From contig OY970067.1 of the NCBI GenBank assembly GCA_963705305.1, positions 4,288,001-4,352,000 of the forward strand: 64,000 bases of DNA. The letters run 5' to 3'. Under the pieces are notes generated by a model. The model saw only the letters and a list, made by a program, of their open reading frames with translations, had not been told where the DNA came from and did not search any database. The translations under genes and the position numbers were made by a program. Positions 13,530-42,030 of the stretch are shown here, piece after piece (within the stretch, counting starts at the first letter, position 1; each line of letters starts with the position of its first letter). This stretch comes from an uncultured Methylomirabilota bacterium. GTDB lineage: Bacteria > Methylomirabilota > Methylomirabilia > Methylomirabilales > 2-02-FULL-66-22.

Positions 13530-13860
13530 GCCATTCGCCTCGCGTGAGTTTGGGTCCGGAACTTCATCTGCCCCGAATCTCCCCCCGACTTCGTGCCGTC
13601 AGGTAAAAATCACTGACAAATCGAGGTCCTCGGGATTGCCCCGAGCCCGCTGGGCCCGCGGGCCAGCCGGTTTCGGGACGCCGTGGCCTCCCAGGCACCG
13701 ATGCTCGCCTGGACGCAACGTCCACGGCGCGACGCGCCCTTCCGAGGGCGGCGGCGCCGGAGCAAGGCTGGCCGGTATTCGACGAGGCCCCAGGCGGGAG
13801 AGGGGCAGTCCCGAGGACCGGTGAAATTGATCGCGGACTCCCGATACGGCCCACCTCAGC

Positions 13861-14475
13861 TCAGATATATCCGGCAATGCGGTAATAGAGCCGACCCACG
13901 ATCTCCTGGAAGATCTTCCGCGTCAGCTTCAAGCGGCCTTCGGGACCGTCCGCCGCTTCGAACTCTTCATCGGACGGCGCGGGACACACCTCGAATCCGG
14001 CCCGGGCGAACAGTGCGCGGGCGCGGAGCATATGCTCTGAGGCGGTTACCAGAAGGATCTTCTTGATTCCGCGAGGACTCAACAGCGCATAGATCCGGCT
14101 GGCCTCCTCGCGTGTCGTGAATGCGTTCGACACTTCGATGATTGCGCCGGGCGGAATCCCCATATCCTGAGCCATCCTGTCACGGACCGAGGCCTCCGAC
14201 GGTCCCCGCCGGGGGGGCGGGCCCGAGACTACCAGCAGCGGCGCATACCCCTTCCGGAAGAGCACGAGTCCGTACAGCAGTCGCCGCAGGGACTCCTCGC
14301 TCAATTGGCCGGCCTCGGCGCCCGCCCCCAGGACGATGACCGCCCCGGCCGGTTGGATCTGCGGCATCACGGCCAGCCGGTAGGCCAGGATGTTTGACAG
14401 AGGCGTGAATGCCGCCACCAGGAAGCCCGCCACCCCCACCAGCCCCAGCACCTTCACTATCCGCCTCCAAGTCAT
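13861..14475 (-). CDS. YdcF/ElyC-like DUF218 protein
   Basis: VIVLGAG, SEA, TTREEA, LLVTASEHMLRA..F and EIVGRLYY; N-terminal TM segment. Confidence 0.88.
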   Translation of the reverse strand: MTWRRIVKVLGLVGVAGFLVAAFTPLSNILAYRLAVMPQIQPAGAVIVLGAGAEAGQLSEESLRRLLYGLVLFRKGYAPLLVVSGPPPRRGPSEASVRDRMAQDMGIPPGAIIEVSNAFTTREEASRIYALLSPRGIKKILLVTASEHMLRARALFARAGFEVCPAPSDEEFEAADGPEGRLKLTRKIFQEIVGRLYYRIAGYI

Positions 14476-14705
14476 TTGCTTTTCCCTAAGTCGCCTTCCA
14501 TCCCCACCGTCACTCGCCGTCTTCCCCTCAGGCACAAATCTGACATCTCACGCCAAGACCGCCATTTCCGGTACGCAGTAGTCAGTGGTCCTGGATTCCA
14601 CCCTCGCCCCCTCACCCCCTCGCCCATGCGCCTCTGCGCTCTTTTCTTCGGTTCCCCCCTTCTCCGTCTCCCGTCTCCTCTCCGTGTCTCCCCCACAGCC
14701 CCTCG

Positions 14706-15054
14706 CTACAACCGAACCACCCGGATGCCCATCTTCCTTGCCGCGCGGGCGAGCTTCGCGTCCAGCGTCGCGAGCTCGAACCCCCTTCGCTGAGCTAGCT
14801 CCAGATAGGCTGCATCGTACGCGGAGAGGCCATGCTCTCGCGCCAGATTGTGCAATCGCCAGAACGTCATCGGGCATCAGTACGACGTCCGTTTGAATCG
14901 GCAGCATGCCGAACAACTCGGTAATCCGCCGGCCGTCCAGATCGGACAATCGCCCGCGCCGCTGGGCCATCGTCAGTCCATTGGCAAGCTCGTACCACCA
15001 CAACGCAGGAACCCAAAATGGATTCCCCACTGAGGTGCGTGCCAGCAGACGATC
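14706..15054 (-). pseudogene. vapC: vapC (PIN toxin), 3' part; split from its 5' part by the Tn7-like element and also frameshifted
   Basis: DRLLAR...WVPALWWYELANGLTMAQRRGR, then a frameshift near 14850 into AREHGLSAYDAAYLELAQRRGFELATLDAKLARAA. Confidence 0.85.
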
Positions 15055-15210
15055 TGCGACTTCCATTGAAGGGTGGCCAAGGTTTTAGGCATAAAGCGGC
15101 CACGAAAATCGCTAACGTGCTGATTTTGTTGATGGGTAATTGGGCGCTGGATTTCGGAGAAATAGGCATAACGTGGACGTGGGTCGAAATCGCAGCCATA
15201 ACGTGGCCAT
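15055..15210 (+). repeat. Left-end array of putative TnsB-binding sites
   Basis: GAAGGGTGGCCA (~15068), GGCATAAAGCGGCCA (~15088), GGCATAACGTGGACG (~15165) and GCCATAACGTGGCCA (~15195); inverted copy TGGCCACTTTATGCC at 27067-27081. Confidence 0.7.
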
Positions 15211-15436
15211 GAGTCTGCCAACATCTTTCTGGCGTGAGTGTGCGCCGCCCTGAGATCATGGGGTGAGGTGCGGCCGACGGGTGCCGGTCGACTGCGAGCA
15301 CGCCTTGGGTGTGCGATTCGGAAGCACTACTTCCTCGTCAGAAAAGGACGATCGAACTGAGTTGGAGAGACTCCGCTTGGGTCAAGGCGTAAGACATCCC
15401 CTGGAGGAACGCGACCTCCAGTCACGAGCTCAATGC

Positions 15437-16039
15437 TCAAGGGTTCCTTTGCGGGTGCGCGAGTGGCCGCAACCAGCGGGGAGCCGGCTCCCGTATCTCG
15501 ATGACCTTTCCATCTTCGAAGCGGGCAACGAGCCGGTACGGCGATCCCAGATCATCATTATCATACACCCAAACGTGGGGCAGCTCTGCGATGGCGGCCG
15601 TGAGATTGCTGAGCGTTCGGGGAAAGCGCGACTGAAGCTTCTCCGCGGGAACATCGTGACCGCCTCTGCTCACGCGCATCGCCACGCGCTCTTCCGACAC
15701 CTTGGGCCCGCTGATCCCGATGAAGATGAGCACCACGGTGTACCCGGCCTCCACGGCTTCTCGGAGGAATTTCCGCTTCTCTCCCACCGGATCCGAAAAC
15801 ACGGTCTCGAAAACAAAGCTCTCCCGCTGGGTGACCAGTTCCCGGCGGACGGCATCCGCCAATTGAACCGCGGTAGCCGGATCGACATTCAGGTCACGGG
15901 CCAGGACATCCGCATTGATCAGCCGCAACCCTGTCGGTTGGAGGTGGGCATAATAGAAGCTTGACTTACCCGCCCCGTTAGGCCCCGCCAGGGCCACGAT
16001 GCTCGGGCGCTGGTCCAGGTAGGGGGGCAGCAATTTCAC
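15437..16039 (-). CDS. Zeta-toxin-like P-loop kinase/ATPase
   Basis: LAGPNGAGKSS, INAD, SFVFETVFS, RVAMRVSRGGHDVP and VYDN. Confidence 0.85.
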   Translation of the reverse strand: MKLLPPYLDQRPSIVALAGPNGAGKSSFYYAHLQPTGLRLINADVLARDLNVDPATAVQLADAVRRELVTQRESFVFETVFSDPVGEKRKFLREAVEAGYTVVLIFIGISGPKVSEERVAMRVSRGGHDVPAEKLQSRFPRTLSNLTAAIAELPHVWVYDNDDLGSPYRLVARFEDGKVIEIREPAPRWLRPLAHPQRNP

Positions 16040-16455
16040 CGCTTCGCCGTGGCGGCGTGCGACGTTCTCCGCCCGGCGGGAGCTTTCTTCATCGGCCTGA
16101 ATTCCCGATGAACGAACCGCCCGAGGGTTCGCTGGCCGGTCGCGTCGATCCGAACCAGGAGGCCCGGTGCCCCCAGCGCGGGCTCGTAATGCGGGTCCGG
16201 CTCGCTCTCGAGGTAGGCCTGGAGTCGCTTTCGCCCCTCGGAGGTCTCGACGGCGGCGAGGCATTCCGATAAGGGCGTCCTCGCGCCTGCCCGAGCCAAC
16301 GCCATCGCGTGGACGCCTTGCAGGAGCGGCTCGATGGCGCGACCCAGCCGCGCCCAGTACTCGATCTGGCCTGCAAGCGAGCGTTCGGCCGCTTCGCTAG
16401 CGAGCCGCGCATCCAGTACCAAGCTCGTCGAAAGTTTGACTGGCTGACTCATCAA
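16036..16455 (-). CDS. ParD-like antitoxin paired with the zeta-like ATPase
   Basis: MSQPVKLS..LVLDAR......RSLAGQIEYWARLGRAIE; 4-bp overlap with the toxin gene. Confidence 0.8.
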   Translation of the reverse strand: MMSQPVKLSTSLVLDARLASEAAERSLAGQIEYWARLGRAIEPLLQGVHAMALARAGARTPLSECLAAVETSEGRKRLQAYLESEPDPHYEPALGAPGLLVRIDATGQRTLGRFVHREFRPMKKAPAGRRTSHAATAKR

Positions 16456-16708
16456 CTCTCCCTCCCTGGCTTTTCAACATGGGATATGCTCATCTCTACT
16501 GTAGAGTAGCATTTTGCTACCTCAATGTCAAAATGTCCTTTCTCCCGTCTCGTTGCCTCCGTCCTGTTCCTACCGACACACAAACTTGAGGCGGCCTAAT
16601 CTGGTTGGCCGCGATCGCGCTCTCGCCCAGTCCTACCAGCTTGATGTTCGGAAGCTTGGCGTCGATGGAAGGCGACTATGCCGAGGGGGGTCAGGGGAAG
16701 TTCGATGG

Positions 16709-16993
16709 TCAGTTGTCGCTCAGGATCTCTCTGATCCGCTCCGCAATGTCTCGCTGGACCCATCGCAGGACGGAATCAATTCCTGGCGTCGCATAGCGGT
16801 GGGCTTTCTCGTCCTCGAAGCCGATGTGCTGTTGCACGGCCTCGAGGAAAAAATAGTACCCCGCCAGGCTCTCGTCCCAAATCCCAGCCTTTCGATCGCG
16901 GTCCAGCTCCCGCCGCGCTGCCGATAGGCCATAGTAGATCGCCATCCATTTCTCGCGATCCAGCCGTATCGGTTTGTTGGCCTCGGTTGCCAT
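16709..16993 (-). CDS. Hypothetical protein (transposon cargo)
   Basis: 94 aa with a GAGG RBS and natural composition; no motif recognised. Confidence 0.55.
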   Translation of the reverse strand: MATEANKPIRLDREKWMAIYYGLSAARRELDRDRKAGIWDESLAGYYFFLEAVQQHIGFEDEKAHRYATPGIDSVLRWVQRDIAERIREILSDN

Positions 16994-17437
16994 TATTTTC
17001 CTCGTGCAGATTCCACAGCGAGTGCGCTTTCCTTCGCCCACAGCCTGCGTGGGAGCTTACCGGTCGCTCAGCTCCTTCCCATGTATGCAGCCCAACATGA
17101 CCTTGCCTACACACGGGTCGAGCTGCGGGCACATTGTCTCAAATCCTAAGCAGCGTACAGGAACATATTTCTGCTGAGCAGTGAATCCCCTCCCGGCGGG
17201 AGGTCGCCAGGCGGTCACTTGAGAGTCTCCACTTGAGTTGGCAAGTGTGGCATAGGGCCGGCGTGCCAAATCCCTCCCACTGGAGGTTCACCGCTCTGGA
17301 GCCCAAGCCCAAAGCGCTCGGAGCGTACCGGCCGATACGCTCGCAGGTTCATCTGCATACATAGAATGCCAGCCCACTGCAATCTGGCAACGAAACCCGA
17401 GCCTCTCTTGATGCCGTTTCGCAGTGAGCAATGACAT

Positions 17438-17980
17438 TCATTTCCTCTTTCGCGGCGTTGGTACTTTCAGCTGCTGCTTGGTGGTCTGTCTAGACACGTC
17501 CACGTCGATCAAAAGTAGGCCGCCACCTCTGAGCAATTGCTCAACTGTGGCCAAGGCGTTTTCGGCCGTTGCTAGGATGGCCCGAGCGATGACCCGCTGA
17601 TCGGGGGTTACCTCCTCCTCGAACGTTCGGGCTATACCCACCACCATCCGTACCGAACCAATGATGGCTGCAGCCGCCTCTGGCGTAATCATCACGTCCT
17701 CGTGCGCACGCGACTCCCGGTACCTGCGGAGGAGGGTCGCGACAGGCTCAGCATCGTCCACGTTGTCTGGGGTAGCCCGGGGATCGAGTGCGAGTAGGTA
17801 GGCTACTGGTACCTTTAGAATCTCGGCGATTTGCCGGAGATTTACTTCATCCGGCACGTTCTTTCCGGTTATCCACGTAGACACCGCATTCTTCTTCAGG
17901 CCAAGTTTTGCTGCGAGTTGGGTCTGATTCAACCTTCGTGCATCCAGCGCCCGTAGGAGTCGCTTGCCCAAGAGGTTCAT
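17438..17980 (-). CDS. XRE-family HTH regulator, divergent from tnsAB
   Basis: LNQTQLAAKLGLKKNAVSTWITGKNVP...LRQIAEILKV. Confidence 0.85.
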   Translation of the reverse strand: MNLLGKRLLRALDARRLNQTQLAAKLGLKKNAVSTWITGKNVPDEVNLRQIAEILKVPVAYLLALDPRATPDNVDDAEPVATLLRRYRESRAHEDVMITPEAAAAIIGSVRMVVGIARTFEEEVTPDQRVIARAILATAENALATVEQLLRGGGLLLIDVDVSRQTTKQQLKVPTPRKRK

Positions 17981-18009
17981 GCGTGAGCCCTCGCCTACAA
18001 AAGTTTTGC

Positions 18010-18038
18010 TTGACACGCGTAGTATCGCGCAGTATCGT
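18010..18038 (+). promoter_or_regulatory. Sigma70-like promoter facing tnsAB
   Basis: TTGACA-N17-TATCGT in the XRE/tnsAB divergent gap. Confidence 0.55.
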
Positions 18039-18415
18039 TTCGTAACAATTCCAGGCTGCACGACCCGTTACCAACAAATTACCACAACGCAATCTTCCTG
18101 GTCAAGTTGAGATCTCTGATGACTGAAGTCGTGAGGAATAAGGCAGATGGGCCTGGGTCGAGCTGCCAGCACAGCACCGGCCAGACTGACTGTGCCAAGG
18201 CCGCCACCCCAAACGAGGGGCCAGCGTCATGCAGATCAGGGAGCCTGGCTCATGCGCGAGCGGAGTCTGATGGAGGAGCAGGTTGTGAATCGGTCCGGGC
18301 GCATACCACCCTATCGAACGAGCAAGGGAGAGACGACTGCAGACGGGGCGTGTAGGAGACCAGCACTTATCCTGGCAGCGATGCGAGAAATCTCCTTTAA
18401 GGGGAGGGCAACACC

Positions 18416-21133
18416 ATGATGACCGACGAAGAATTTGCGGAGTGGTGCCGCAAGTGCAATGTCTCGGAAGAGGCTCAGAAGATGGTGGTGGAGATTCGGA
18501 ACTCTCCGCCATCCCGACGCGTGGGCGGGGGACCAGGAGGTGTCTCTGGCCGCTTCCCCTCCCGCAAAACGCGCACGGTTCTCCAGTTTTCGAGCCATCG
18601 GGTGGTATTGCCCTTCCTGCAGCAGATGGACCTCGACCCGAAGGTCAAAGAGATATGGGATCAGCCGCCACCCATCCCCCTCGAGTACCAGAAGGCGAAC
18701 GGGCGATGGGTGAGCATCCGACAGACCGCAGACTTCTTCGTGCTCTACGAAGATCGGGCCGGGTGGGTAGAGATCCGAACAGAAGAAGAGCTCGTCAGGC
18801 TGAGTCAGGTCGCGCCCAATCGGTACCGGCGCGACGAAGACATGGGCTGGAATACGCACGATGACGGGTGCTGGTGCTGCCCGCCGGCTGAGGCCTACAC
18901 CGCGCAGTATGGCCTCGTCTACTACGTCTGGTCCGCCGACGAAATCAACTGGAATTACCAGCGCAACATCCATTACCTGGACGAGTACATCGACGCCCCC
19001 GCTCCCCCCGCCGCTGTCCAAGACCACCTGTGCAAGCTCGTCGCGGACGAACCGGGGATCACCCTGGAGGCGCTTGCGGCGAAAGCGGCGCCAGAGGCCA
19101 GCCGGGACGCGATCTACTGGATGATCACCCACGGTGCCCTCTGGGTGGATCTCTGCGCTCGTCCCATTAAAGACGACGACTTGGTTCAGGTCTTTGTGGG
19201 CCAGGACACGACCGGCGCCCAGGGGCTTGCAGTGGAGCCCGCTCGGCCCGGCCGGCCGTGCGTGGTCGACTTCACCGCGGGGAGCTCATTCTGGTGGGAC
19301 GGGCGCTGCTGGACCGTCGCCATGGTTGGGGACTCGCAGTTGATGCTCCAAGGCGATGACGAGAAGCCCCTCTTCTTGCCGCTCGCCACGCTCGAAGTCC
19401 TCGTGAAAGAGGGAAAGATCACCGGCACCACCCAGACCTCTCCGAACTCGGCCATCGAGCGCCTCTTGGTCCGGGCGAGCGACGCAGACAAGGAGATCGC
19501 CAAGCGCCGCCAGCAGTTCGTGCTCCCGCATCTCGCTGACGAGTGGGTGCCCGAGGAGGAAATGCCCGGGCGGACGCTGCGCCGCTGGGTGCGCAAGTAC
19601 CTGCGCGCAAAAGAGAAGTATGGGTGGGGATTTCTCGGGCTCCTGCCGCGGATCGCCTGGCGCGGAAACCGGGAACCGCGATTTGATGATGGCATGCTGG
19701 AACTCGTCAAGGTCATCATCGATGAGGAGTACCTCAAGCCCACGCAGAAGAACAAATTCGCCGCCTGGTCATACTTGGTGCGGGCCTGCGACGGGCTGAA
19801 CGCCCATCGCAGTACCGGCGAAAAAGAGCTCAAGCCCCCCTCTTTCGCCTCGTTCTCCCTGATGCTGGACCGGATCTCGTTGCATGAGCGCGTGCGCCAA
19901 CGTCGGGGACGGAAGGCCGCCTATCCCTACGAGCCATTTTACTGGTACCTGAGTATGACCACCCCGGTTCACGGCGACCGGCCCTGGGAGATCGCCCACA
20001 TTGACCATACCCCGTTCCCCGTCGAACTGCGGTGCTCGAAGACCCACGAAAACTTGGGCTGCGCCTGGTTCACCCTCATGGTGGATGCCTTCACCCGGAG
20101 GGTCCTGGCCGTGTACCTCACGTACGACCCGCCCTCCTACCGGTCGGTCATGATGGTCCTCAGGGATTGTGTCCGACGCTGGCGGCGGCTCCCGCGGACG
20201 ATCGTGGTCGATGGCGGGGCGGAGTTCCACAGCACCTACTGCGAGACGCTCCTGGCCTTCTATGAGGTCATCCAGAAGACACGGCCGGCTGGGAAGCCGA
20301 GATTCGGGTCGGTGGTGGAGCGCCTGTTCGGCACGACGATGACCGAGTTCGCCTACCTCCTGACCGGCAATACCCAGATGGGCGACGGCAATCTCCGGCA
20401 GATCACCCCCTCGGTCGACCCCAAACGGCTTGCGGTGTGGACCCTCGGCGACTTGTACGAGCACCTCTGCCATTACCTCTTTGAGACGTATGACACCAGC
20501 ACGCATCGGACCCTGGGTCAGAGCCCACGCGGGGCCTATGAGGCGGGGATGGCGCAGGCCGGAGCCCGCTCCCACCGGCTGATCCCCTACGACCGGGAGT
20601 TCCTGATCAACACGCTCCCGACAACGCCGAAAGGCACCGCCACGGTTCAGCCCGACGGTAGCATTAAGATCAACAATCTCCATTACTCCCAGCAGGCTCT
20701 GCGCGACGCCCGGGTCGTGAAGCGACCCGTGCCGGTGAAGTATGACCCGTTCGACGCCGGGCATGCCTTCGCGTTCGTGCGTGGCGAGTGGGTTGAGTGT
20801 TTTGCCCGCAACTATGCCGAATTCCAAGGCCGCACCGAAAAGGAATTGATGCTTTACTCGAGCGAGGTCAAGAAGCGGCTCCAGTTCTCCTCCGACGACC
20901 AACTCGAGGAGGCCCGGGAGCGGGCAGAGACGCAGGGGCGGGTCAAGGACAAGGAGGAGGCATTGGCCCAGCGGTGGCGGGACCTAGAGACCTCCCAACT
21001 CCACGACGGCCTCACGCTCCCCGCAACGCGTGCCCAGGAGACGCCCGCCGAGTTGCCTGAAGCCCACCCCCTCCCCTCACCCGAACCGCCGGCCGAGACG
21101 TCCGAAGAGCCCGAATACTACGGAGAACTCTAA
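18416..21133 (+). CDS. tnsAB: TnsA-TnsB fusion transposase
   Basis: N-terminal TnsA-like segment (SGRFPSRK..WDQPP..ADFFV..WVE) fused to a Mu/TnsB DDE core (HIDHT, VVDGGAEF, VVERLF) and C-terminal VKYDPFD. Confidence 0.88.
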   Translation: MMTDEEFAEWCRKCNVSEEAQKMVVEIRNSPPSRRVGGGPGGVSGRFPSRKTRTVLQFSSHRVVLPFLQQMDLDPKVKEIWDQPPPIPLEYQKANGRWVSIRQTADFFVLYEDRAGWVEIRTEEELVRLSQVAPNRYRRDEDMGWNTHDDGCWCCPPAEAYTAQYGLVYYVWSADEINWNYQRNIHYLDEYIDAPAPPAAVQDHLCKLVADEPGITLEALAAKAAPEASRDAIYWMITHGALWVDLCARPIKDDDLVQVFVGQDTTGAQGLAVEPARPGRPCVVDFTAGSSFWWDGRCWTVAMVGDSQLMLQGDDEKPLFLPLATLEVLVKEGKITGTTQTSPNSAIERLLVRASDADKEIAKRRQQFVLPHLADEWVPEEEMPGRTLRRWVRKYLRAKEKYGWGFLGLLPRIAWRGNREPRFDDGMLELVKVIIDEEYLKPTQKNKFAAWSYLVRACDGLNAHRSTGEKELKPPSFASFSLMLDRISLHERVRQRRGRKAAYPYEPFYWYLSMTTPVHGDRPWEIAHIDHTPFPVELRCSKTHENLGCAWFTLMVDAFTRRVLAVYLTYDPPSYRSVMMVLRDCVRRWRRLPRTIVVDGGAEFHSTYCETLLAFYEVIQKTRPAGKPRFGSVVERLFGTTMTEFAYLLTGNTQMGDGNLRQITPSVDPKRLAVWTLGDLYEHLCHYLFETYDTSTHRTLGQSPRGAYEAGMAQAGARSHRLIPYDREFLINTLPTTPKGTATVQPDGSIKINNLHYSQQALRDARVVKRPVPVKYDPFDAGHAFAFVRGEWVECFARNYAEFQGRTEKELMLYSSEVKKRLQFSSDDQLEEARERAETQGRVKDKEEALAQRWRDLETSQLHDGLTLPATRAQETPAELPEAHPLPSPEPPAETSEEPEYYGEL

Positions 21134-22317
21134 TGCCATCTACCTTGCCACGCTTCCCTCCCCCTCTTCTCCAGGCGCCAAGCGCCGAGCGGATTGCGTA
21201 CCTTGTAGGGTATACGATGGCACATCCGTTGCTCAAGACGGTTCTCAAGCGACTCTCGAGCGAAATCGCCGACTCCTTTCGGAACTCCCTGATCTTCGTT
21301 CCCGGCCTCACGGGGGTGGGAAAGACGACGGTCCGCAGGCTGATCGAGGAAACTCTCACACAGGAGTTAGAAGAGGATCTCAAGACTGACCGGGAGCGAA
21401 TCCCTGTCGTCAGCGTCGAAGTCGTGGCGCCAGAATACGGCAAGCTCAATTGGACCAACCACTACTTTAAGCCGACCCTCCGGGTGATTCAGGATGTGCT
21501 GATCGGTCGCAAGCGCCGCCTGGGTCCGTCCCCCAATCCCGAAGCGGCCCCATATGACTTGCTCGGCCCACGGGCGACAGGTGCCGTCTATTATGAGGCG
21601 GTTGTCGAAGGGCTGACCCACCGGCGTCCCAGGGTTGTCCTCATCGACGAAGCGCAGCATTTTCTTCGGGTCGGCCCCGGACGCAACGCGTTGGACTACG
21701 TCGATGTGATCAAGAGCATCGCCAATCGCACGCAGACCGTTCACATCCTGTTCGGGACGTTCGAGCTCCTGGGCCTTCTTGATTTAAGCGGACAGCTCAG
21801 CCGCCGGAGCATCATCGTGCCTTTTCCGCGTTATCACTGTGACACGCCCGAAGAGCAGAAGATGTTCCGCCACGTCCTTCGAACGTTTGCACTCCAGTTG
21901 CCGCTCGAAGAGCCGCCCGATCTCGCCGGAGACTGGCAATTCCTGTATGAATGCACCCTGGGCAGCTTGGGTCTCCTGAAGCAATTGCTGGTCAAAGCAA
22001 TCGCCTCGGCCTACCGGGAGAATCGCCTGGTCCTCACGCGGGCCGACTTGGAAAAGGGGGCCCTCCTCCCCGCACAACGAAACCGGATCCTCCTGGAGGC
22101 TGCTATCGGGGAGAAGCGATTGGCAGGAGGAGGAGATCTTCTGCCAGAAGAGTGCGCGATCCTGGGCCTGGTTCCCCGGGTTCCCCCTCCTCGCCCGCCA
22201 GCGCCTAAGACTCCGACACAGGACCGGAAGCTCCACCCCGGTCGACGCAAGCCAAAACGGGACCCAACGGGAGGTTCCGGCAATGGGTCTAGCAATGGGT
22301 CCGGATCACCCAGTTGA
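21133..22317 (+). CDS. tnsC: TnsC AAA+ ATPase
   Basis: Walker A GLTGVGKTT, Walker B VLIDEAQH, LFGTFEL and QLSRRS; coupled to tnsAB. Confidence 0.9.
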   Translation: MPSTLPRFPPPLLQAPSAERIAYLVGYTMAHPLLKTVLKRLSSEIADSFRNSLIFVPGLTGVGKTTVRRLIEETLTQELEEDLKTDRERIPVVSVEVVAPEYGKLNWTNHYFKPTLRVIQDVLIGRKRRLGPSPNPEAAPYDLLGPRATGAVYYEAVVEGLTHRRPRVVLIDEAQHFLRVGPGRNALDYVDVIKSIANRTQTVHILFGTFELLGLLDLSGQLSRRSIIVPFPRYHCDTPEEQKMFRHVLRTFALQLPLEEPPDLAGDWQFLYECTLGSLGLLKQLLVKAIASAYRENRLVLTRADLEKGALLPAQRNRILLEAAIGEKRLAGGGDLLPEECAILGLVPRVPPPRPPAPKTPTQDRKLHPGRRKPKRDPTGGSGNGSSNGSGSPS

Positions 22318-22536
22318 CACGTGGTCTGATCGTGTGGCTGGGTCGTCAGGATGCGGCGTCTATCCCGTGGCAGCGCGCGGCGAGGCAAGGCAGCAATGTC
22401 GCGCGAGCGGGATCTCGATACCTGAGCTCCCCGCAAGGGTGGGACGACTGACAGGCATAACCATCACGGATGTTTCAGCTGGGACCCGGAGGAGACCGTC
22501 CGGTGCATGAGGCGATGGGACAAGGGGGGATCGAGG

Positions 22537-24396
22537 ATGCCGAATCTCTTTGATTCGTGGGACCTGACGCCCACGCCCTTTCCGCCACGGAGTCGCCTGT
22601 ATTCGTTAGGGCCAATGGGTGTGGGGACTCCCATGGTTGAGAGCTTGACCGGTTACCTGATGCGCTTGGCCATGGCGCATTCTGTTGGGGTTGGGGACCT
22701 GCTGCGTGCAGAAGTGCAAGATTGGATGTCTCCAGGGAAGCCTATTGTGCCTACGGCCATATGGAACGGAGTCAACGGGGTGGTTCGCACAACCCGGGAT
22801 CTAGTGCAGACCCTTGAACGTTTGACGCACCGGACGGATCTGGTTTACCTCACATTGCTGCCCCTTGAGTCACTCCTCCCGACTACCCGACTTATACGGA
22901 AGAAGCGGGCGTGGTGCCCGTACTGTTATGAGGAGATGGCCGCCGCCAGCGCGATTGTATATGAGCCACTCCTATGGTGCCTGCAAGCGGTCGAGGTGTG
23001 CCATCGGCATAAGGTCTGGCTGTACACGACGTGCCCCCATTGTTCCCAAATGCTCCCACCGTTGGCGGCGATGGTGAAACCAGGCCATTGTTCGCGATGC
23101 GAGGCGTGGCTTGGGACACACACGTCCCCCCTCGAGGACCCGAGCCACCGGAGAGCCACGGTCGATCAGTGTTGGATGGCAGAGGCTGCAGGAGAGCTGG
23201 TGGCATGTTGCCCTCGGATTGATCCTGCCGTACTGAAAGCCAACCTCCGGACCGCCTTATCAGCGCGTGTGGACAAGCTGGCCGGCGGCAACCGGAATGT
23301 GCTCGCGCAGGCGTTTCAGGGCTCTCGAGTATCCTTCCATGGGTGGGTTGCCGGCACGCAGATGCCTCAGCTCGGCACCCTGCTCCGTCTATTGCGTTAC
23401 CTAGGATTGCCGGTACGTTGTCTGCTCGATCCGCAGCAATTCGTGGGTGAAGCGGGGAATAGGGGCGAGCAAGCGCTTCTGACCCATCGCGCAGTGGTTC
23501 CGCATCGGAGCCCCTCCCAGATCCGCGCTGTCCTGAAGGCTGTGCAGGGGGAGCATCCTGCTCCAAGCCTTTCAGAGGTGGCACAACGTCTCGAATACAC
23601 TTCACCGAGGCGCCTCCGTGCGGTCGATCGTGCAGGTTGTCAGAAGGTCGATGAGAGGCATCGTAACGGATCCAGCGCGGCCCGAGGTAATGATCTACGC
23701 CCCCCATCTGAGATCCAGCAGGCGCTTGAGGATTCTCTGGCGTGCCCGCAGCCAATATCGGTCAACCGAATGGCCTACCTGTTTGGATACTCGAATCCCG
23801 CCTCACTCCATTGTCGGTTTCCGGAGCTGTGCCAGGCGATTGTGGTGAAGCTCGCCACATGGAAGGAAGAAAGACGCAGGGCGATCAGGCGGAGGCTGAA
23901 GGCGGCGGCCAGGGAGAAGCCGCCGCCCACTTTGGAAACGCTCACGAAGGAGTTTGGCCTCCACTCACAAAAGCCGCTCCGAAGGCTCGAGCCGGCGTTA
24001 TGTGACCAAATCATCGCACAGCGCAGGGCGTGGATCAAACGGAAGCGAGCAGAGCTTGCACGACGATTGAAGGCGGTTCTGCGAGAGGAGCCGCCTCCTT
24101 CTGCGACGGCGGTCCGGCAACGCCTCGGCATTTCGCCACGAGCAGTCTGGTACCGCGAAACCTTCAAAGCCATCGCACGGAGATACGCGATCCACAGGAG
24201 GCAACTTAAACAGGCGCGAATGAACACATCTCGCAACGAAATGCGCGAGATCGTGAACCGACTGCACCGCCAAGGTGTCTACCCGTCAAGAGGTCGGGTG
24301 ATGAAGTTGCTGAGCCCACGATGTGTCAAAAGCAAGGCATGGATTCAGAATGCAATCAGGCAGGCTCGGAAGGACATAGAGAGGCGCCAGAAATGA
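22537..24396 (+). CDS. tnsD: TniQ/TnsD target selector, paralog 1
   Basis: ESLTGYLMRLAMAH; zinc motifs WCPYC, C.RH, CPHC and HCSRC; long C-terminal repeated HTH-like region. Confidence 0.85.
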   Translation: MPNLFDSWDLTPTPFPPRSRLYSLGPMGVGTPMVESLTGYLMRLAMAHSVGVGDLLRAEVQDWMSPGKPIVPTAIWNGVNGVVRTTRDLVQTLERLTHRTDLVYLTLLPLESLLPTTRLIRKKRAWCPYCYEEMAAASAIVYEPLLWCLQAVEVCHRHKVWLYTTCPHCSQMLPPLAAMVKPGHCSRCEAWLGTHTSPLEDPSHRRATVDQCWMAEAAGELVACCPRIDPAVLKANLRTALSARVDKLAGGNRNVLAQAFQGSRVSFHGWVAGTQMPQLGTLLRLLRYLGLPVRCLLDPQQFVGEAGNRGEQALLTHRAVVPHRSPSQIRAVLKAVQGEHPAPSLSEVAQRLEYTSPRRLRAVDRAGCQKVDERHRNGSSAARGNDLRPPSEIQQALEDSLACPQPISVNRMAYLFGYSNPASLHCRFPELCQAIVVKLATWKEERRRAIRRRLKAAAREKPPPTLETLTKEFGLHSQKPLRRLEPALCDQIIAQRRAWIKRKRAELARRLKAVLREEPPPSATAVRQRLGISPRAVWYRETFKAIARRYAIHRRQLKQARMNTSRNEMREIVNRLHRQGVYPSRGRVMKLLSPRCVKSKAWIQNAIRQARKDIERRQK

Positions 24397-24621
24397 AAGC
24401 CCTCGGAGAGGGGCGGCTCGAAGATCTCTTCATGGATGGGGTTGAGGTGCGGGGCGATGGCGGGCACGAGATTGCGCCAGCTCGTTTTCATTTGCCGGAC
24501 GCTGACTGTCTGGCCATCAGCTCGTATGGCAATCGACGGGAAACGGCAGTCGGTCCGTCCGGCAGGCACATGGACATTGTCTGTCGTGGCCGGGATGCAA
24601 TCAGGCAGGGAGGAGTGGAGG

Positions 24622-25545
24622 ATGCCGAATCTCTTTGATTCGTGGGACCTGACACCCACGCCTCTTCCGCCGCGGAGCCGCCTGTATTCGTTGACGCCAA
24701 TGGGCGTGGGGACTCCCATGGTTGAAAGCTTGACCGGTTACCTGATGCGCTTGGCCATGGCGCATTCTGTTGCGGTGGGCGACCTGCTCCGGACAGAAGT
24801 CAGAGGCTGGGGGTCAGCGAAGCGGCCTACGGGGATACGGAACGCTGTTAACGGGGTGGCTCGCCAAACCCGTAACCTGGTAGACACTGTTCAACACTTG
24901 ACATTCCGGACGGACGTAGCCTGCCTCTCCTTGTTACCCTTTGCGTCATTCCTCCCGAGTACGCGGCTTGTTCGGGGGAGCCGGGCTTGGTGCGGACATT
25001 GTTATGAGGCAATGGTCGCAGACTGCGGCGTCGTCTATGAGCCCCTGCTCTGGTGCCTGCAGGCGGTCGAGGTGTGCGCCCGGCACAAGGTCTGGCTCCG
25101 CACGATCTGTCCAAAGTGCGCTCGGGCGCTCCCGCCATTGGCGACGACTTCAAGCCCTGGCCATTGTTCGCGGTGTGGGGTTTGGCTTGGGGCAACCGCG
25201 TCTTCGCAGGTCGACCCAGGACAACGGGAGCCCACGGCCGATCTGTGTTGGACGGCAGAAGCCGCGGGGGAGTTGCTGGCATGGGGTCCTCGAGTTGACC
25301 CGGCCGGGCTGAGAGCCAATCTTCGAACGGTCCTGTCATCGTGCGTGGAAGAGTTGGCCGGCGGCAACCGTTTCGCGCTCAGTCGGGTACTCCAGTTTCC
25401 CCAGACAACCTTCCATAGTTGGGTTGCTGGCAGACAAATGCCTCAGCTTGGCAGTCTCCTGACGCTATTGCGCCAACTCGACCTGCCGGTCCGCTGCCTG
25501 GTAATGCCCCAGACGTTCCGTGGGTTGCGGGAAGATTCAGTGTGA
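24622..25545 (+). CDS. tnsD: TniQ/TnsD paralog 2, N-terminal TniQ part (frameshift near 25519)
   Basis: N-terminus nearly identical to paralog 1; ttc c gtg ggt here versus ttc gtg ggt in paralog 1 indicates one extra C. Confidence 0.8.
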   Translation: MPNLFDSWDLTPTPLPPRSRLYSLTPMGVGTPMVESLTGYLMRLAMAHSVAVGDLLRTEVRGWGSAKRPTGIRNAVNGVARQTRNLVDTVQHLTFRTDVACLSLLPFASFLPSTRLVRGSRAWCGHCYEAMVADCGVVYEPLLWCLQAVEVCARHKVWLRTICPKCARALPPLATTSSPGHCSRCGVWLGATASSQVDPGQREPTADLCWTAEAAGELLAWGPRVDPAGLRANLRTVLSSCVEELAGGNRFALSRVLQFPQTTFHSWVAGRQMPQLGSLLTLLRQLDLPVRCLVMPQTFRGLREDSV

Positions 25546-26482
25546 GCGAGCCTTGGCGAGCGAATTCGGAGTACATGCGTATCGGAGCCAAAGTCAACTC
25601 CGCGATGCGATGCAACCCTTTTTGCTAAAGAATCCAGCTCCAAGCCTTATGGAAGTCGCCCGGGATCTTGGTTACACCTCGCCGGACCGCCTCTATGAGG
25701 CTGATCGTGCGACTTGCGAAAAGATCGTCGCGAGGCGTCGGGAGGAATTTCGCGCTGCACGAGTCTATAGACTGTGTTCCTCGGCCGAGATCCAGCGGGC
25801 GCTCGAGGATTCTCTGGCGGAGGCCCGGCCGATACCGATCAGTCAGGTCGCACGCCTCCTTGGGTATTCATATTGTACCCCGCTCATCAGTCGGTTTCCG
25901 GAACTATGTCGAGCTATTGTGGCGAAGATTGCGGCGTGGAAAAAAGAATTATGCAGGGCGATCCGGAGGAGACTGAAGGCTGCCGCGAGAGAGAAGCCGC
26001 CGCCGCCCCTGAGGGCTCTTGCAAGGGAGTTTGAGCTGCCGACCGCTGATTTGCTCCGGGACCTCGAGCCGGAGCTGTGTCGCCAAATCGTTGCGCGGCG
26101 TTTTGCATGCATAAAGGAAGAGCGGGGAGTGCTTGCTTGCCAATTGGAGAAGGTTCTACTGGAGGATCCGCCTCCTTCCGCGAGCGCGATCCACAAACGG
26201 TTCGGCATTACGCGGTCAGTTGCCATGAAGTGGTATCACAAGACTTTTAGGGCAATTGCGCGCAGACACGCACTTTACAGGAGGCAAGTCAAACAAATGT
26301 GGTTAAACGCGTGCCGGAACGAAATCCGGGAAATCGTGAACCGACTGCACGGTGATGGCGTCTACCCGTCCGATGGACAGGTGCTGAAGTTGCTGAGCCC
26401 ACGGTTTACTAGAACAGACCGAGTGTGGGTCAATAATGAAATCAGCGAAGCTCGGAAGGGCATAGGGCGGCCGCATAAATGA
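25520..26482 (+). CDS. TnsD paralog 2, C-terminal DNA-binding part (separate frame)
   Basis: Collinear with the paralog 1 C-terminus (PAPSL.EVA, EIQ.ALEDSLA, AIRRRLKAAAREKPPP, EIVNRLH..GVYPS). Confidence 0.75.
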   Translation: MGCGKIQCERALASEFGVHAYRSQSQLRDAMQPFLLKNPAPSLMEVARDLGYTSPDRLYEADRATCEKIVARRREEFRAARVYRLCSSAEIQRALEDSLAEARPIPISQVARLLGYSYCTPLISRFPELCRAIVAKIAAWKKELCRAIRRRLKAAAREKPPPPLRALAREFELPTADLLRDLEPELCRQIVARRFACIKEERGVLACQLEKVLLEDPPPSASAIHKRFGITRSVAMKWYHKTFRAIARRHALYRRQVKQMWLNACRNEIREIVNRLHGDGVYPSDGQVLKLLSPRFTRTDRVWVNNEISEARKGIGRPHK

Positions 26483-27102
26483 GCAGTCTCGAAGTAGGGC
26501 TGATGTAGGATCTCTCAGCGGATGGCGAAAGTCACGAGCTCGCCCCAGTTCGTCTTCAGCTCGCGAACGCCGAGGGTCTGGGCTCCACCCCAATTGGCAA
26601 CGACGAGAAACCGCAGTCCTGCCCCGTCCCCGAGGCAGGACGTCATGACCTGTGGCCGAAATGGGGCGGTGCTAGCTCGCACGGAGGGACTGCCTCAGCA
26701 GAGTAACTAGGCCTCCGAGTAAGCAAGTTGTCTGGGCCGGTGCAATCGGGCCGTGCGGAAATGCGTCAGGGTTGGTCCACTTTCCTCTTTGTGGTCTCCA
26801 CAGATGCCGGGGGATCATCGAAATGTCGCCGAGTCAAGGGCTCGGTCTGTAAATTGGATGAGTTCATCCTTCGCACAGTAGCGGAAAGCCTCCCCGCCGA
26901 CTTATTCTGCAGGCCGTCTTGGTGGATCCTATACGCGGGTAGGTTACCACAACCAAGAATCCTGTCGCCGCTGGATGGCTATGACATCTTGGAACCTGCG
27001 GAAACGTACGAGATCCAAGTGGCACCGGACCGATCCCGATATTCCAGGTTGGTTGGATTGGCCATTTGGCCACTTTATGCCAGAAGTCGCAGTCGCACAC
27101 AC

Positions 27103-27174
27103 CGCCTGTCTGGACCGCTCATCTGGAAGGGCCCACGCCAATGCGACTGAACAGTCCAGCACGCATTCGCTCAT
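27103..27174 (-). pseudogene. vapC: vapC 5' part (MSECVLDCSVALAWALPDERSRQA)
   Basis: PIN N-terminal VLD.S..LAW..PDE; overlaps the antitoxin stop; joins 15054 in frame (QA|DRLL). Confidence 0.85.
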
Positions 27175-27425
27175 CGGCGTCGGCCCTGCGCGATTAGCTC
27201 TCGGACATTCACCTTTCCGGGGATCCGTTGTCGAATCTCCCGGAAAGCCTGCAGAGCCTCCCTGGGCGTGAGGCATCGCTCTCCCGCCCCGACGGGTGTC
27301 AAGCGGGCCACGGCCTTGCCTCGACGCTTTATCACAAAGGTGGCTCCTTGCTCGGTCGCGCGCAGCAGCTCCGACAGGCGCGTTTTCGCCTCGAAGGCGC
27401 CGACAGTGATCGTCTTACCCCTCAT
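27171..27425 (-). CDS. Phd/YefM antitoxin
   Basis: TVGAFEAKTRLSELL....GATFVIKRRGKAVARL. Confidence 0.9.
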   Translation of the reverse strand: MRGKTITVGAFEAKTRLSELLRATEQGATFVIKRRGKAVARLTPVGAGERCLTPREALQAFREIRQRIPGKVNVRELIAQGRRR

Positions 27426-27667
27426 CGGTCTCCTCCACTGGCAGTTGACTGAAACTAGTTTAACAAACCGGTCTGTTCTCGTCAACGGCCCGATTCCAGT
27501 ATGCAGCAGACAGGGGTTAAAAGTCAGTGGTCGGTGGTCGGCGGTCACGTGAGATATGAGTTCTTCAATTTCGAACTTCGAATTTCGCGTTTCGAATTTC
27601 CCGTTTGCCTCTTTCCTCCTGGTCATGATAACTTTCCGACGTTAGACGATCCAATCCGCGACCGGCC

Positions 27668-28159
27668 ATGATCGACCTCTATACTGAATTCAAGACGGCA
27701 CTGCAGGCCCTCGAAGCGGCTGAGGTTCCCTACGCCGTGTGCGGTGGCCTTGCCTTGATGGTGTACCAGCTACCCAGGGCAACCGTTGACATCGATCTGG
27801 TCCTACCGGCCGACGCGACTGATGCTTGCGCTGCGGTGCTGGTGCCGCTCGGCTATCGGCCCCATCCTCGGCGGATGCGCTTCGCATCCAGCGGCGTCCA
27901 GATCCTTCGGTTCTACAAAGTGGAACCGGGGGGGCCGGACGCGCTGACCCTGGACTGCCTCTTGACCACTCACCCGACGATCCTCGAGACGTGGCGCAGC
28001 CGCGTTCGCGTTCCCTTCGAGGACCGGACGATCTGGGTCGTCTCTCTCGAAGGGCTGATCGCATTGAAGCAGCTGAGGGGATCGCCCCTGGACTTGCTCG
28101 ACATCCAGGCCCTGCGAGAGTCCGGCCCGAGAACACACCCGGGAGAAGACGATGCCTGA
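27668..28159 (+). CDS. Nucleotidyltransferase (AbiEii/DUF6036-like)
   Basis: YAVCGGLAL....RATVDIDL and C-terminal VVSLEGLIALK..RG..LD..DI..L. Confidence 0.8.
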   Translation: MIDLYTEFKTALQALEAAEVPYAVCGGLALMVYQLPRATVDIDLVLPADATDACAAVLVPLGYRPHPRRMRFASSGVQILRFYKVEPGGPDALTLDCLLTTHPTILETWRSRVRVPFEDRTIWVVSLEGLIALKQLRGSPLDLLDIQALRESGPRTHPGEDDA

Positions 28160-28487
28160 GGCGGATCAGCGACTGCGCCAAGTCGCCCAGCTACGAAGAA
28201 TCTGGCGGGCCCTTCGGGATGCGCAGGAACGACGAGAGGACGAGGAGATTGCGCGCCCCTACTACGAGAAGTTGCCGGGACCCTCTGATGTCCGGGAACC
28301 GCACCCCGCCTATAGCCGCCGTACGATTCGCGCCTTGGTCCGTCGCTGGTGGTGCGCCGGCGACTATGCAGCCATCATCCAACTCGGCCAGGGCCTCGAC
28401 CCCGTCCTCCTGGACGAAGAGCCGCTGGTCCGGGTATATCTCGACGAAGCAACGGCGGCTCTTTCCCTCGACCATCTCCATCCTTAG
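28152..28487 (+). CDS. Hypothetical protein coupled to the nucleotidyltransferase
   Basis: 8-bp overlap with the upstream gene; 111 aa. Confidence 0.55.
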   Translation: MPEADQRLRQVAQLRRIWRALRDAQERREDEEIARPYYEKLPGPSDVREPHPAYSRRTIRALVRRWWCAGDYAAIIQLGQGLDPVLLDEEPLVRVYLDEATAALSLDHLHP

Positions 28488-29273
28488 TGCTTAGCGGCCT
28501 AAATTCCACGACGTATCCATTGACCGCTTAACCTCCCGGTCCCCTGGGCCGACCCGAGACGCCGCGCCACACCCATCCTCCGGATGGGTACCCGGCGAGC
28601 CGGTCCGGCGGGCACCCGTTGCGCTCTCCCCATGCAACGGGTCGGGCCACCGTTCTGTGGTGGCCGACCCCGGGTACCCGGCCGGGTAGGCTGGGTGCAG
28701 GGCGAGCCGGCATCGGGTACCCGCCCGCAGGGTGGGTGCAGGCGCCAAGCGTCCGAGGGGCGGCCCGGGGGACCGGGATACGTCGCCGCAATTACGGCCA
28801 GGAGTACTTAGGTCCTCTGCCGGAAAAACTAAACGGCACGTCGATCCCTCGGCCCGGCGCCGTTGTGCGGCGAACGACCTCAATCTCTCACGCCGAAATC
28901 GCCGTCGGATGAAACAGTGAACCGGGCTATCGGTGTCCGTTCTCTCTCCGGGACTCCGTTTCCCCGATACTCCGTTTCTCCGTCTCTCCGTTTCTCCGTC
29001 TCTCCGGTTCGCCCCCTCACCCTCTCTCCTTGTCGCCCGCTCTCCCCTTCGCCCCTTCGTTCCGCCCTGCGCCCTTTGGGTGCTTTGCGTGAGGCGCCTG
29101 TTCTTGCCTTCTCGTACGCTCGTACGGTCTTGCACTTTCGCCTCAGCACCCCTGCACTCGAGCGCAGCGGTGCTCCCCCTCCCTCCGGGGTGGAGCCCCT
29201 ACGGGGTGGAACCCGGGCCGTAGGCTTGACTCCTGCCCCCTTGCCCTCTGCCCTATGCGCCATGCTCTTTGCG

Positions 29274-41725: not shown

Positions 41726-42030
41726 GATGGAAGCGATGGCGAGCGCTGGGTGACGTTACACTCAAAGTCGGTGCCTTCTCACCGTGTCACCAGCCGGGGG
41801 AAGCGCGGTGCGCGTCAATGCGCGTTCCCGAAAGTTCAACGTCTTTCCTCCGGTCCGGAGACTCCCCCGGATTCAGCCTCCTCGCCGGGGATCTACAGAT
41901 CCGCCCGCTCCTTTCCCGGCTCCTGTGATAGGATTATCCGCAGGTTGACGTGGCGGACGGCACTCCTACCAGCCCACGTCGTCTCGGGCGCCCAAACGTA
42001 TCTGGTCCATGGTACAGGGACCAACGAACG

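Follow-up and report, generated by a model that had tools for sequence, protein, structure and literature searches.

A Tn7-like element of the TnsA-TnsB fusion clade, probably a one-off insertion, in the vapC toxin gene of a Methylomirabilota bacterium

Introduction

The genome of an uncultured Methylomirabilota bacterium (assembly GCA_963705305.1) contains, within the 64,000-nucleotide stretch analysed here (contig OY970067.1, positions 4,288,001 to 4,352,000; hereafter the window), a vapC toxin gene that is interrupted by a Tn7-like element at window positions 15055-27102. The locus raises the question of whether this element was led to vapC by a target selector of its own, in which case toxin-antitoxin (TA) genes would be a new class of target, or arrived there once and untargeted, and of how one of its junctions came to be without a target duplication. 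The answer that we consider probable is a one-off, untargeted transposition into vapC by an element of the TnsA-TnsB fusion clade, one junction of which was remodelled.

The interrupted toxin gene

The vapC gene lies on the minus strand in two pieces. Its N-terminal 24 codons (27103..27174) begin with an ATG at 27174-27172 and end in ...PDERSRQA, after which the frame enters foreign sequence at 27102; the remainder of VapC resumes at 15054 with DRLLARTSVGNPFWVPALWWYE (starting DRLLAR...) and occupies 14706..15054, of which 14706-14870 matches the PIN domain family PF01850. Aligned as separate fragments to eight homologues from other genomes, the two pieces adjoin each other exactly, leaving neither gap nor overlap, and PDExSxxADR(F/L) is continuous over the junction in six of the eight rows, the other two diverging N-terminally. 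The original prediction, made from the letters alone, that removal of 15055-27102 restores vapC in frame behind its Phd antitoxin was thereby confirmed codon for codon. The insert measures exactly 12,048 bp and lies at codon 24/25 of the chromosomal gene, with no base of vapC lost or duplicated; a single base at its edge is ambiguous, the C at 27102 being the same as the C at 15054. At the DNA level, the insertion point reads GATCG in four of five vapC homologues and GACCG in the fifth. The C-terminal part of vapC is also frameshifted, at a C-run at 14872-14874.

The phd antitoxin gene (27171..27425, minus strand; PF02604, Phd/YefM, E 4e-8) is intact, and its stop overlaps the vapC start as ATGA. 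The target is thus a PIN toxin gene directly behind a PF02604 antitoxin gene, as in Phd-VapC type II TA pairs.

Homologues of the C-terminal part of VapC were found in 15 of 251 genomes of the phylum, the window's own included (a tally that also counts the unpublished genome G216, which enters no other result), and of the 14 other genomes that carry them, eight supplied the aligned homologues, none of which is interrupted at the insertion point. The empty allele that was to be sought in relatives is available in the form of uninterrupted homologues, including one in a genome of the same order (G026), but not as an orthologous empty site: none of 20 same-genus genomes matches the DUF218-vapC flank, the matches obtained being to a dispersed repeat and to a non-syntenic homologue in genome G020. 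The latter is the closest phd-vapC homologue (L003 1734-2150; 69% identity at the DNA level), is broken by an in-frame TAG and adjoins an IS3-type transposase gene.

Gene content and affiliation of the element

The genes of the insert were identified through Pfam, NCBIfam and PDB sequence searches. The largest, tnsAB (18416..21133, plus strand), encodes a predicted natural TnsA-TnsB fusion transposase of 905 aa, which matches PDB 9bw1_M over residues 5-862 (E 7.2e-224) and contains the rve (PF00665) and Mu-transpos_C (PF09299) domains. The TnsA endonuclease domain is assigned to the N-terminus of this protein, as the 9bw1 alignment starts at residue 5 and the orthologue in G026 matches PF08722; the protein's own TnsA-like match (residues 42-127) is weak and under the curated cut-off. 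It is followed on the same strand by tnsC (21133..22317), encoding an AAA+ regulator of 394 aa (AAA_22, TniB; PDB 8fcu_Q TnsC, E 7.9e-74), and by tnsD1 (22507..24396), encoding a full-length TniQ-domain target selector of 629 aa (PF06527, E 7e-16; PDB 8v32_J TnsD, E 5.1e-61). The match of TnsD1 to 8v32 covers the TniQ part, and the protein is collinear with the TnsD of G026 at 37% identity.

Two further frames on the plus strand are the halves of a second selector gene, tnsD2. The first (24436..25545; PF06527) is 67% identical to residues 10-314 of TnsD1, and the second (25520..26482), in another frame, is 54% identical to residues 321-629 and carries the helix-turn-helix (HTH) repeats. Only 19 nt (six codons and one nucleotide) lie between the homologous frames, from FRG to ERAL, and the two frames form a tandem paralogue of tnsD1 split by one frameshift. 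An annotation of these frames as a separate "TniQ" and "HTH protein" was dropped; the 369-aa frame resembles a short TniQ without a DNA-binding C-terminus only through the frameshift in a TnsD paralogue.

The element thus combines a DDE transposase of TnsB type (rve and Mu-type C-terminal domains), a TnsA fusion, TnsC, TniQ/TnsD and inverted termini with repeats, all characteristic of the fusion clade; the 5-bp target-site duplication of the clade is lacking. On these matches, the proposal that a Tn7-like element had inserted in vapC was correct, and the insert can be identified as a real Tn7-like transposon of this known clade with a duplicated TnsD and no CRISPR. No Cas family was recognised among its frames by Pfam, NCBIfam or defence-system matching, a repeat search returned no CRISPR array, and there was no match in Rfam. 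It is present in a single copy, with no stray ends elsewhere in the 5.6-Mb single-contig genome, and its two TniQ domains are the only ones in that genome.

The best solved-structure match for TnsAB, TnsC and TnsD alike is PmcCAST of Peltigera membranacea cyanobiont 210A (PDB 9bw1, 8v32, 8fcu), a type I-B2 CRISPR-associated transposon (CAST) of which 9bw1 is the transpososome (bioRxiv 10.64898/2026.05.29.728539; PMC12585508). Both elements have a fused TnsAB, TnsC and TnsD in the same order and a second TniQ-family gene after tnsD. Unlike PmcCAST, the element described here has neither Cascade genes nor a CRISPR array, has no adjoining transfer RNA (tRNA) gene and is in a non-cyanobacterial host; its second selector is a full-length, though split, TnsD paralogue where that of PmcCAST is a short Cas-binding TniQ, and its TnsD1 is 629 aa long against 462 aa. 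With no Cascade and no CRISPR array inside the element, it falls outside the type I-B2 and I-D CASTs, and its core is their CRISPR-less counterpart. Cas-less Tn7-like elements with a tandem tnsD-tnsD pair derived from duplication in place have been described, the survey text giving 1,048 dual loci (Faure et al., 2023; PMC10293859). The present pair is likewise in tandem, with paralogues 67% (N-terminal) and 54% (C-terminal) identical, but its second copy is broken into TniQ-core and HTH-repeat frames.

Termini of the element

The 25-bp imperfect inverted repeat and the repeated sites that had been noted at the ends were both upheld. The repeat is identical at 17 of 25 positions, its outer 9 bp (TGCGACTTC) being the same at both ends. 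Within the window, only four sites match GGCATAANGTGGCCA with at most two mismatches, at 15088, 15165 and 15195 on the plus strand and at 27067 on the minus strand, and all four lie no more than 155 bp from the insert ends and point inwards. The other five matches have three mismatches, which is the chance level (nine found against 4.6 expected, nine being reached in 5 of 100 shuffles).

The exact termini were fixed by means of relatives. A relaxed end pattern was applied to 23 loci, 20 of which yielded termini; three pairs come from the same record or region, leaving 17 distinct, and the end search found no termini for locus L025. The 20 loci give an end consensus of TG(T/C)NACTT-N4-CATAA, to which the window termini conform position by position when set beside TGTGACTT, TGTAACTT, TGTCACTT and TGTTACTT; fuller examples are TGTGACTTTACCCATAACTTTGCC (Nostocales), TGTTACTTGAAGCATAATGTTGCC (L023) and TGTCACTTAAACCATAACATGGCC (G026), against which the window reads TGCGACTTCTGGCATAAAGTGGCC at the right (reverse complement, ending at 27091) and TGCGACTTCCATTGAAGGGTGGCC at the left (from 15055). 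Because both termini align to this consensus, the element proper is taken as 15055-27091 (12,037 bp), and 27092-27102 as junction filler.

Both termini read TGCGACTT, with C as the third base at each end and the terminal CA-3' kept. The tnsAB-side terminus (End B; 15055..15079, plus strand) combines TGCGACTT with a degenerate terminal TnsB-type site and is followed by three spaced, predicted TnsB-type binding sites (15088-15102, 15165-15179 and 15195-15209, plus strand). The tnsD-side terminus (End A; 27067..27091, minus strand), which is target-proximal in the clade, combines TGCGACTT with one perfect TnsB-type site, the only good one at this end, against three in relatives. The proposed end erosion is contradicted for the left end by this result, since TGCGACTT at both ends fits the consensus of the 20 related elements, and TGC...GCA is this lineage's intact version of TGT...ACA. 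The observation of a TGT at the right end only was accurate in that TGTGCGAC stands before the repeat there and nowhere at the left, but it is not the terminus: as a candidate, TGTGCGAC was rejected because it departs from the clade consensus and is unmatched at the opposite end. Departures of this kind have been documented, with TGT/ACA lacking in around 20% of Tn7-like elements and McCAST functional with TAC/GTA termini, according to the text of a survey of the group (PMC9881144).

The right junction and the missing duplication

As had been reported for this locus, there is no clean 5-bp duplication, with CGATC to the left of 15055 and CACAC at the right edge of the insert. Where a canonical event would have placed a second CGATC, 27091 is followed by an 11-nt filler, GTCGCACACAC (27092..27102), after which vapC resumes with CGCCTG. 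The anomaly is confined to this junction, and the filler can be read as reiterated terminal sequence (GTCGCA, CA, CA, C).

Duplications of 5 bp are the rule in the TnsAB-fusion clade, both as described (PMC9881144) and among the relatives examined here. The G026 element has a perfect duplication, TCTCT, its other end lying on another contig and the same five nucleotides standing beyond its tnsD-side end. Among nine cyanobacterial elements whose loci include both ends, the duplication is perfect in five (L017, L018, L021, L022 and L027). The other four have no clean one: L016 carries, beside its duplication, an additional A at the tnsD-side junction, as comparison with the same site in L021 indicates; the repeat is only 4 nt long in L014 and only 3 nt in L013, which fits a loss of 1-2 nt at one junction, on either side; and L020 has none. 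The defects in three of the nine (L013, L014 and L016) are consistent with changes beside the tnsD-side terminus, and joining or re-cleavage at the target-proximal end may be imprecise in the fused-TnsAB clade.

Recombination between copies is the usual cause of missing duplications. It was rejected here, as the element occurs only once and is flanked by the two halves of a single gene.

Relatives and their insertion sites

Relatives were sought in several collections. A scan of genome contigs with TnsD1 gave 18 loci with a best-segment identity of 28-45%, mostly in Nostocales with one in Chloroflexia and one in Pyrinomonadaceae; a metagenome scan gave four loci at 31-40%; and tblastn against plasmids returned 33 records, none of which reached 60% and the best of which was at 31%. 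In the phylum, two of 251 genomes matched, one being the window's own and the other G026, which carries the only relative found in these searches with a TnsD above 35% identity (37-39%). Pattern-based scans overlook relatives at 40-60% identity, as happened with G026, and closer ones may exist.

The G026 element has the same layout of XRE gene, tnsAB, tnsC and tnsD, the same placing of cargo on the tnsAB side, the same end consensus and the same site spacing. Its TnsAB is 44% identical to that of the window, and its XRE protein, though encoded in the same position, is alike only in the HTH (31% over 87 aa). It differs in having one tnsD, TGT termini, its TCTCT duplication, an intergenic site and other cargo. 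It spans two contigs (L038 1-12155; L041), with a type I restriction system and a reverse-transcriptase gene between the tnsAB-side end and the XRE gene.

The G026 element stands upstream of a methyltransferase gene, in an intergenic stretch rich in repeats. Neither similarity nor a shared motif links its flank to that of the window (score 14, equalled or exceeded in 737 of 1000 shuffles), nothing in G000 matches the G026 flanks, and the VapC homologue of G026 itself, 61% identical, is intact and was not entered by the element. The clade uses mostly tRNA sites according to the survey text (PMC9881144). Amongst the loci scanned, a tRNA gene is present in only 2 of 15, the tnsD-side end lying around 30 nt downstream of tRNA-Val in L013 and around 25 nt downstream of tRNA-SeC in L023, and a further site, not of tRNA type, is common to several Nostoc elements. 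L013 and L023 agree with a rule in print by which the end with sites in both orientations (the "left", tnsD-side end) adjoins the target (PMC9881144), so the tnsD-side end was taken as target-proximal in the window also. The present element is not downstream of a tRNA gene: there is none in the 64 kb, and a tRNA-like pseudo-site in the vapC flank was not significant, the best score against the 54 tRNA genes of the genome being 26, which 14 of 200 shuffles also reached.

Mapping the insertion sites of homologues, as had been suggested, therefore favours a one-off event, since no common landing site emerges between the intergenic G026 site, with its unrelated flank and intact vapC homologue, and the tRNA-Val and tRNA-SeC sites of distant relatives, although only one close relative could be compared.

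Origin of the insertion and of its junction

We suggest that a single-copy element transposed once into vapC at codon 24/25, with its tnsD-side end towards the 5' region of phd-vapC, and most likely outside any regular attachment site. The insertion would have been tolerated because the loss of the toxin of a TA pair costs the cell nothing. At the tnsD-side junction, 10-11 nt that repeat the terminal GTCGCA and CA would have taken the place of the lost second CGATC copy. Error-prone repair might leave such a scar at a break that the transposase of the element made exactly at the junction, whether on integration or when an excision was later begun and aborted. Untargeted, gene-disrupting insertion has a parallel in the same TnsAB clade in Tn5469, which by its published description (PMC9881144) has no fixed attachment site; unlike the present element, that spontaneous insertion mutagen is described as having no cargo and a single TniQ.

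Several points weigh against this account. The TnsD of G026, at 37-39% identity, could well have another specificity, and it belongs to the one informative relative. That the loss is limited to the 5-bp copy requires a mild coincidence; the repair step is one that we infer, and the genome yielded no Ku gene. Both frameshifts (vapC at a C run, tnsD2 at a G run) could be assembly errors. Finally, the orientation is that of a TnsD-directed event, the target-proximal end facing a conserved coding stretch, which leads to the view of phd-vapC as a genuine attachment site, where a TnsD paralogue would bind the 5' region of vapC or the 3' end of phd with insertion around 20-80 bp off, and which would be safe as only a toxin is lost. 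The region faced encodes the conserved first PIN motif, the two TnsD genes imply two specific targets, and other Tn7-like elements have known attachment sites within genes, such as comM, the regular site of Tn6022 (PMC10293859); Tn6022 is, however, described as a member of another clade that has TniQ plus TnsF and makes target duplications. We nevertheless regard such a site as unlikely, with a single insertion to point to, the G026 element elsewhere and its vapC homologue empty, eight aligned homologues uninterrupted and no duplication to mark a clean targeted event; a literature search, which did not cover the survey supplementary tables, found no link of Tn7-like sites to vapC or TA genes. 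The wider proposal that a TnsD paralogue recognises the conserved 5' region of phd-vapC, with toxin genes as a harmless landing site and the split tnsD2 as a stage on the way to a TniQ with a partner in trans, is distinctly doubtful. TA genes as a new target class, one of the two explanations in the original prediction, accordingly keep a low probability and gained nothing beyond this one insertion.

The irregular junction might also mean that there was no transposition at all, and that an excised linear element was captured by end joining where a double-strand break happened to arise in vapC. Cut-and-paste movement in the clade provides linear intermediates (PMC9881144, for McCAST), and the lack of a duplication and the 10-11 nt of reiterated terminal sequence at one junction would be expected; the other junction is flush, however, with no donor nucleotides, the target lost no bases, which is unusual for break repair, and the failure to find a Ku gene tells against this account as well, to which we give only a slim chance. 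Equally improbable is that errors of a metagenome-derived assembly account for the odd junction and both frameshifts and that the real junction is canonical. Contamination of the genome is 6.5%, both frameshifts are at short C or G runs, and a public run with near-identical contigs has a depth of just 2-7x; of its 20 contigs, the 8 that were listed include none spanning 27091-27103 (one starts at 27107 and is uninformative). An 11-nt, non-homopolymer substitution is atypical of consensus errors, and all but two of the 20 contigs match the window at 99% or more, although the run may be the source sample and so not independent. No contig that skips the element was found in that run. A contig joint from 13776 to 28714 in the reads stems from short repeats and not from excision.

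Cargo and surroundings

The remainder of the element consists of cargo, a regulator and a non-coding tail. A P-loop kinase of zeta toxin / AAA_33-like type is predicted at 15437..16264 (minus strand; PF06414, E 4.6e-11; PF13671, E 2.8e-8), and an XRE-type HTH regulator divergent from tnsAB at 17438..18061 (minus strand; PF01381, E 7.6e-10); matched against known defence systems, the cargo gave weak P-loop and HTH matches only. The tail (26483..27066) is around 480 nt longer than in relatives and without recognisable feature, and neither it nor the other gaps of the element contain an Rfam family, a tandem or CRISPR-like repeat or a protein remnant.

To the left of the insert are the core genes gltB, a LysR regulator and DUF218, and to the right an island of TA and conflict genes, comprising an AbiEii-like gene (27668-28159), DUF433/DUF5615 pairs and a TOTE primase. 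The last is an 863-aa protein (41950-44541) in which a TOTE-system archaeo-eukaryotic primase domain is fused to a helicase. Two repeats were also observed. A dispersed repeat of around 170-250 nt at 13594-13850 recurs at least 12 times more in this genome and, at 70-84% identity, in 7 of the 20 same-genus genomes; a miniature mobile element and a small RNA gene are both conceivable. A short intergenic repeat at 27560-27606 consists of tandem TTCGAA-core units, and stretches of 35-45 nt that are almost identical to it (around 90%) are frequent in genomes of the genus and order.

Significance

Were a TnsD of this element to target vapC, this would be a new class of attachment site, and were it to read phd-vapC, TA toxin genes, which are abundant on chromosomes and plasmids, would be landing sites at which insertion disarms the toxin; the split tnsD2 would then be a snapshot of a TnsD becoming a TniQ with a partner acting in trans. 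At the strength that the evidence allows, the result is more routine: a CRISPR-less relative of the type I-B2 CASTs outside cyanobacteria, with a tandem TnsD of a kind already surveyed. Together, the elements of the window and of G026 extend the TnsAB-fusion clade to another phylum, and the four-module TnsD, around 170 aa longer than the solved one, offers comparison material for how TnsD reads DNA. The irregular tnsD-side junction seen here and in three of nine relatives hints that target-proximal integration or re-cleavage is less clean than in textbook Tn7, and such imprecision would be relevant to the use of fused-transposase elements as insertion tools.

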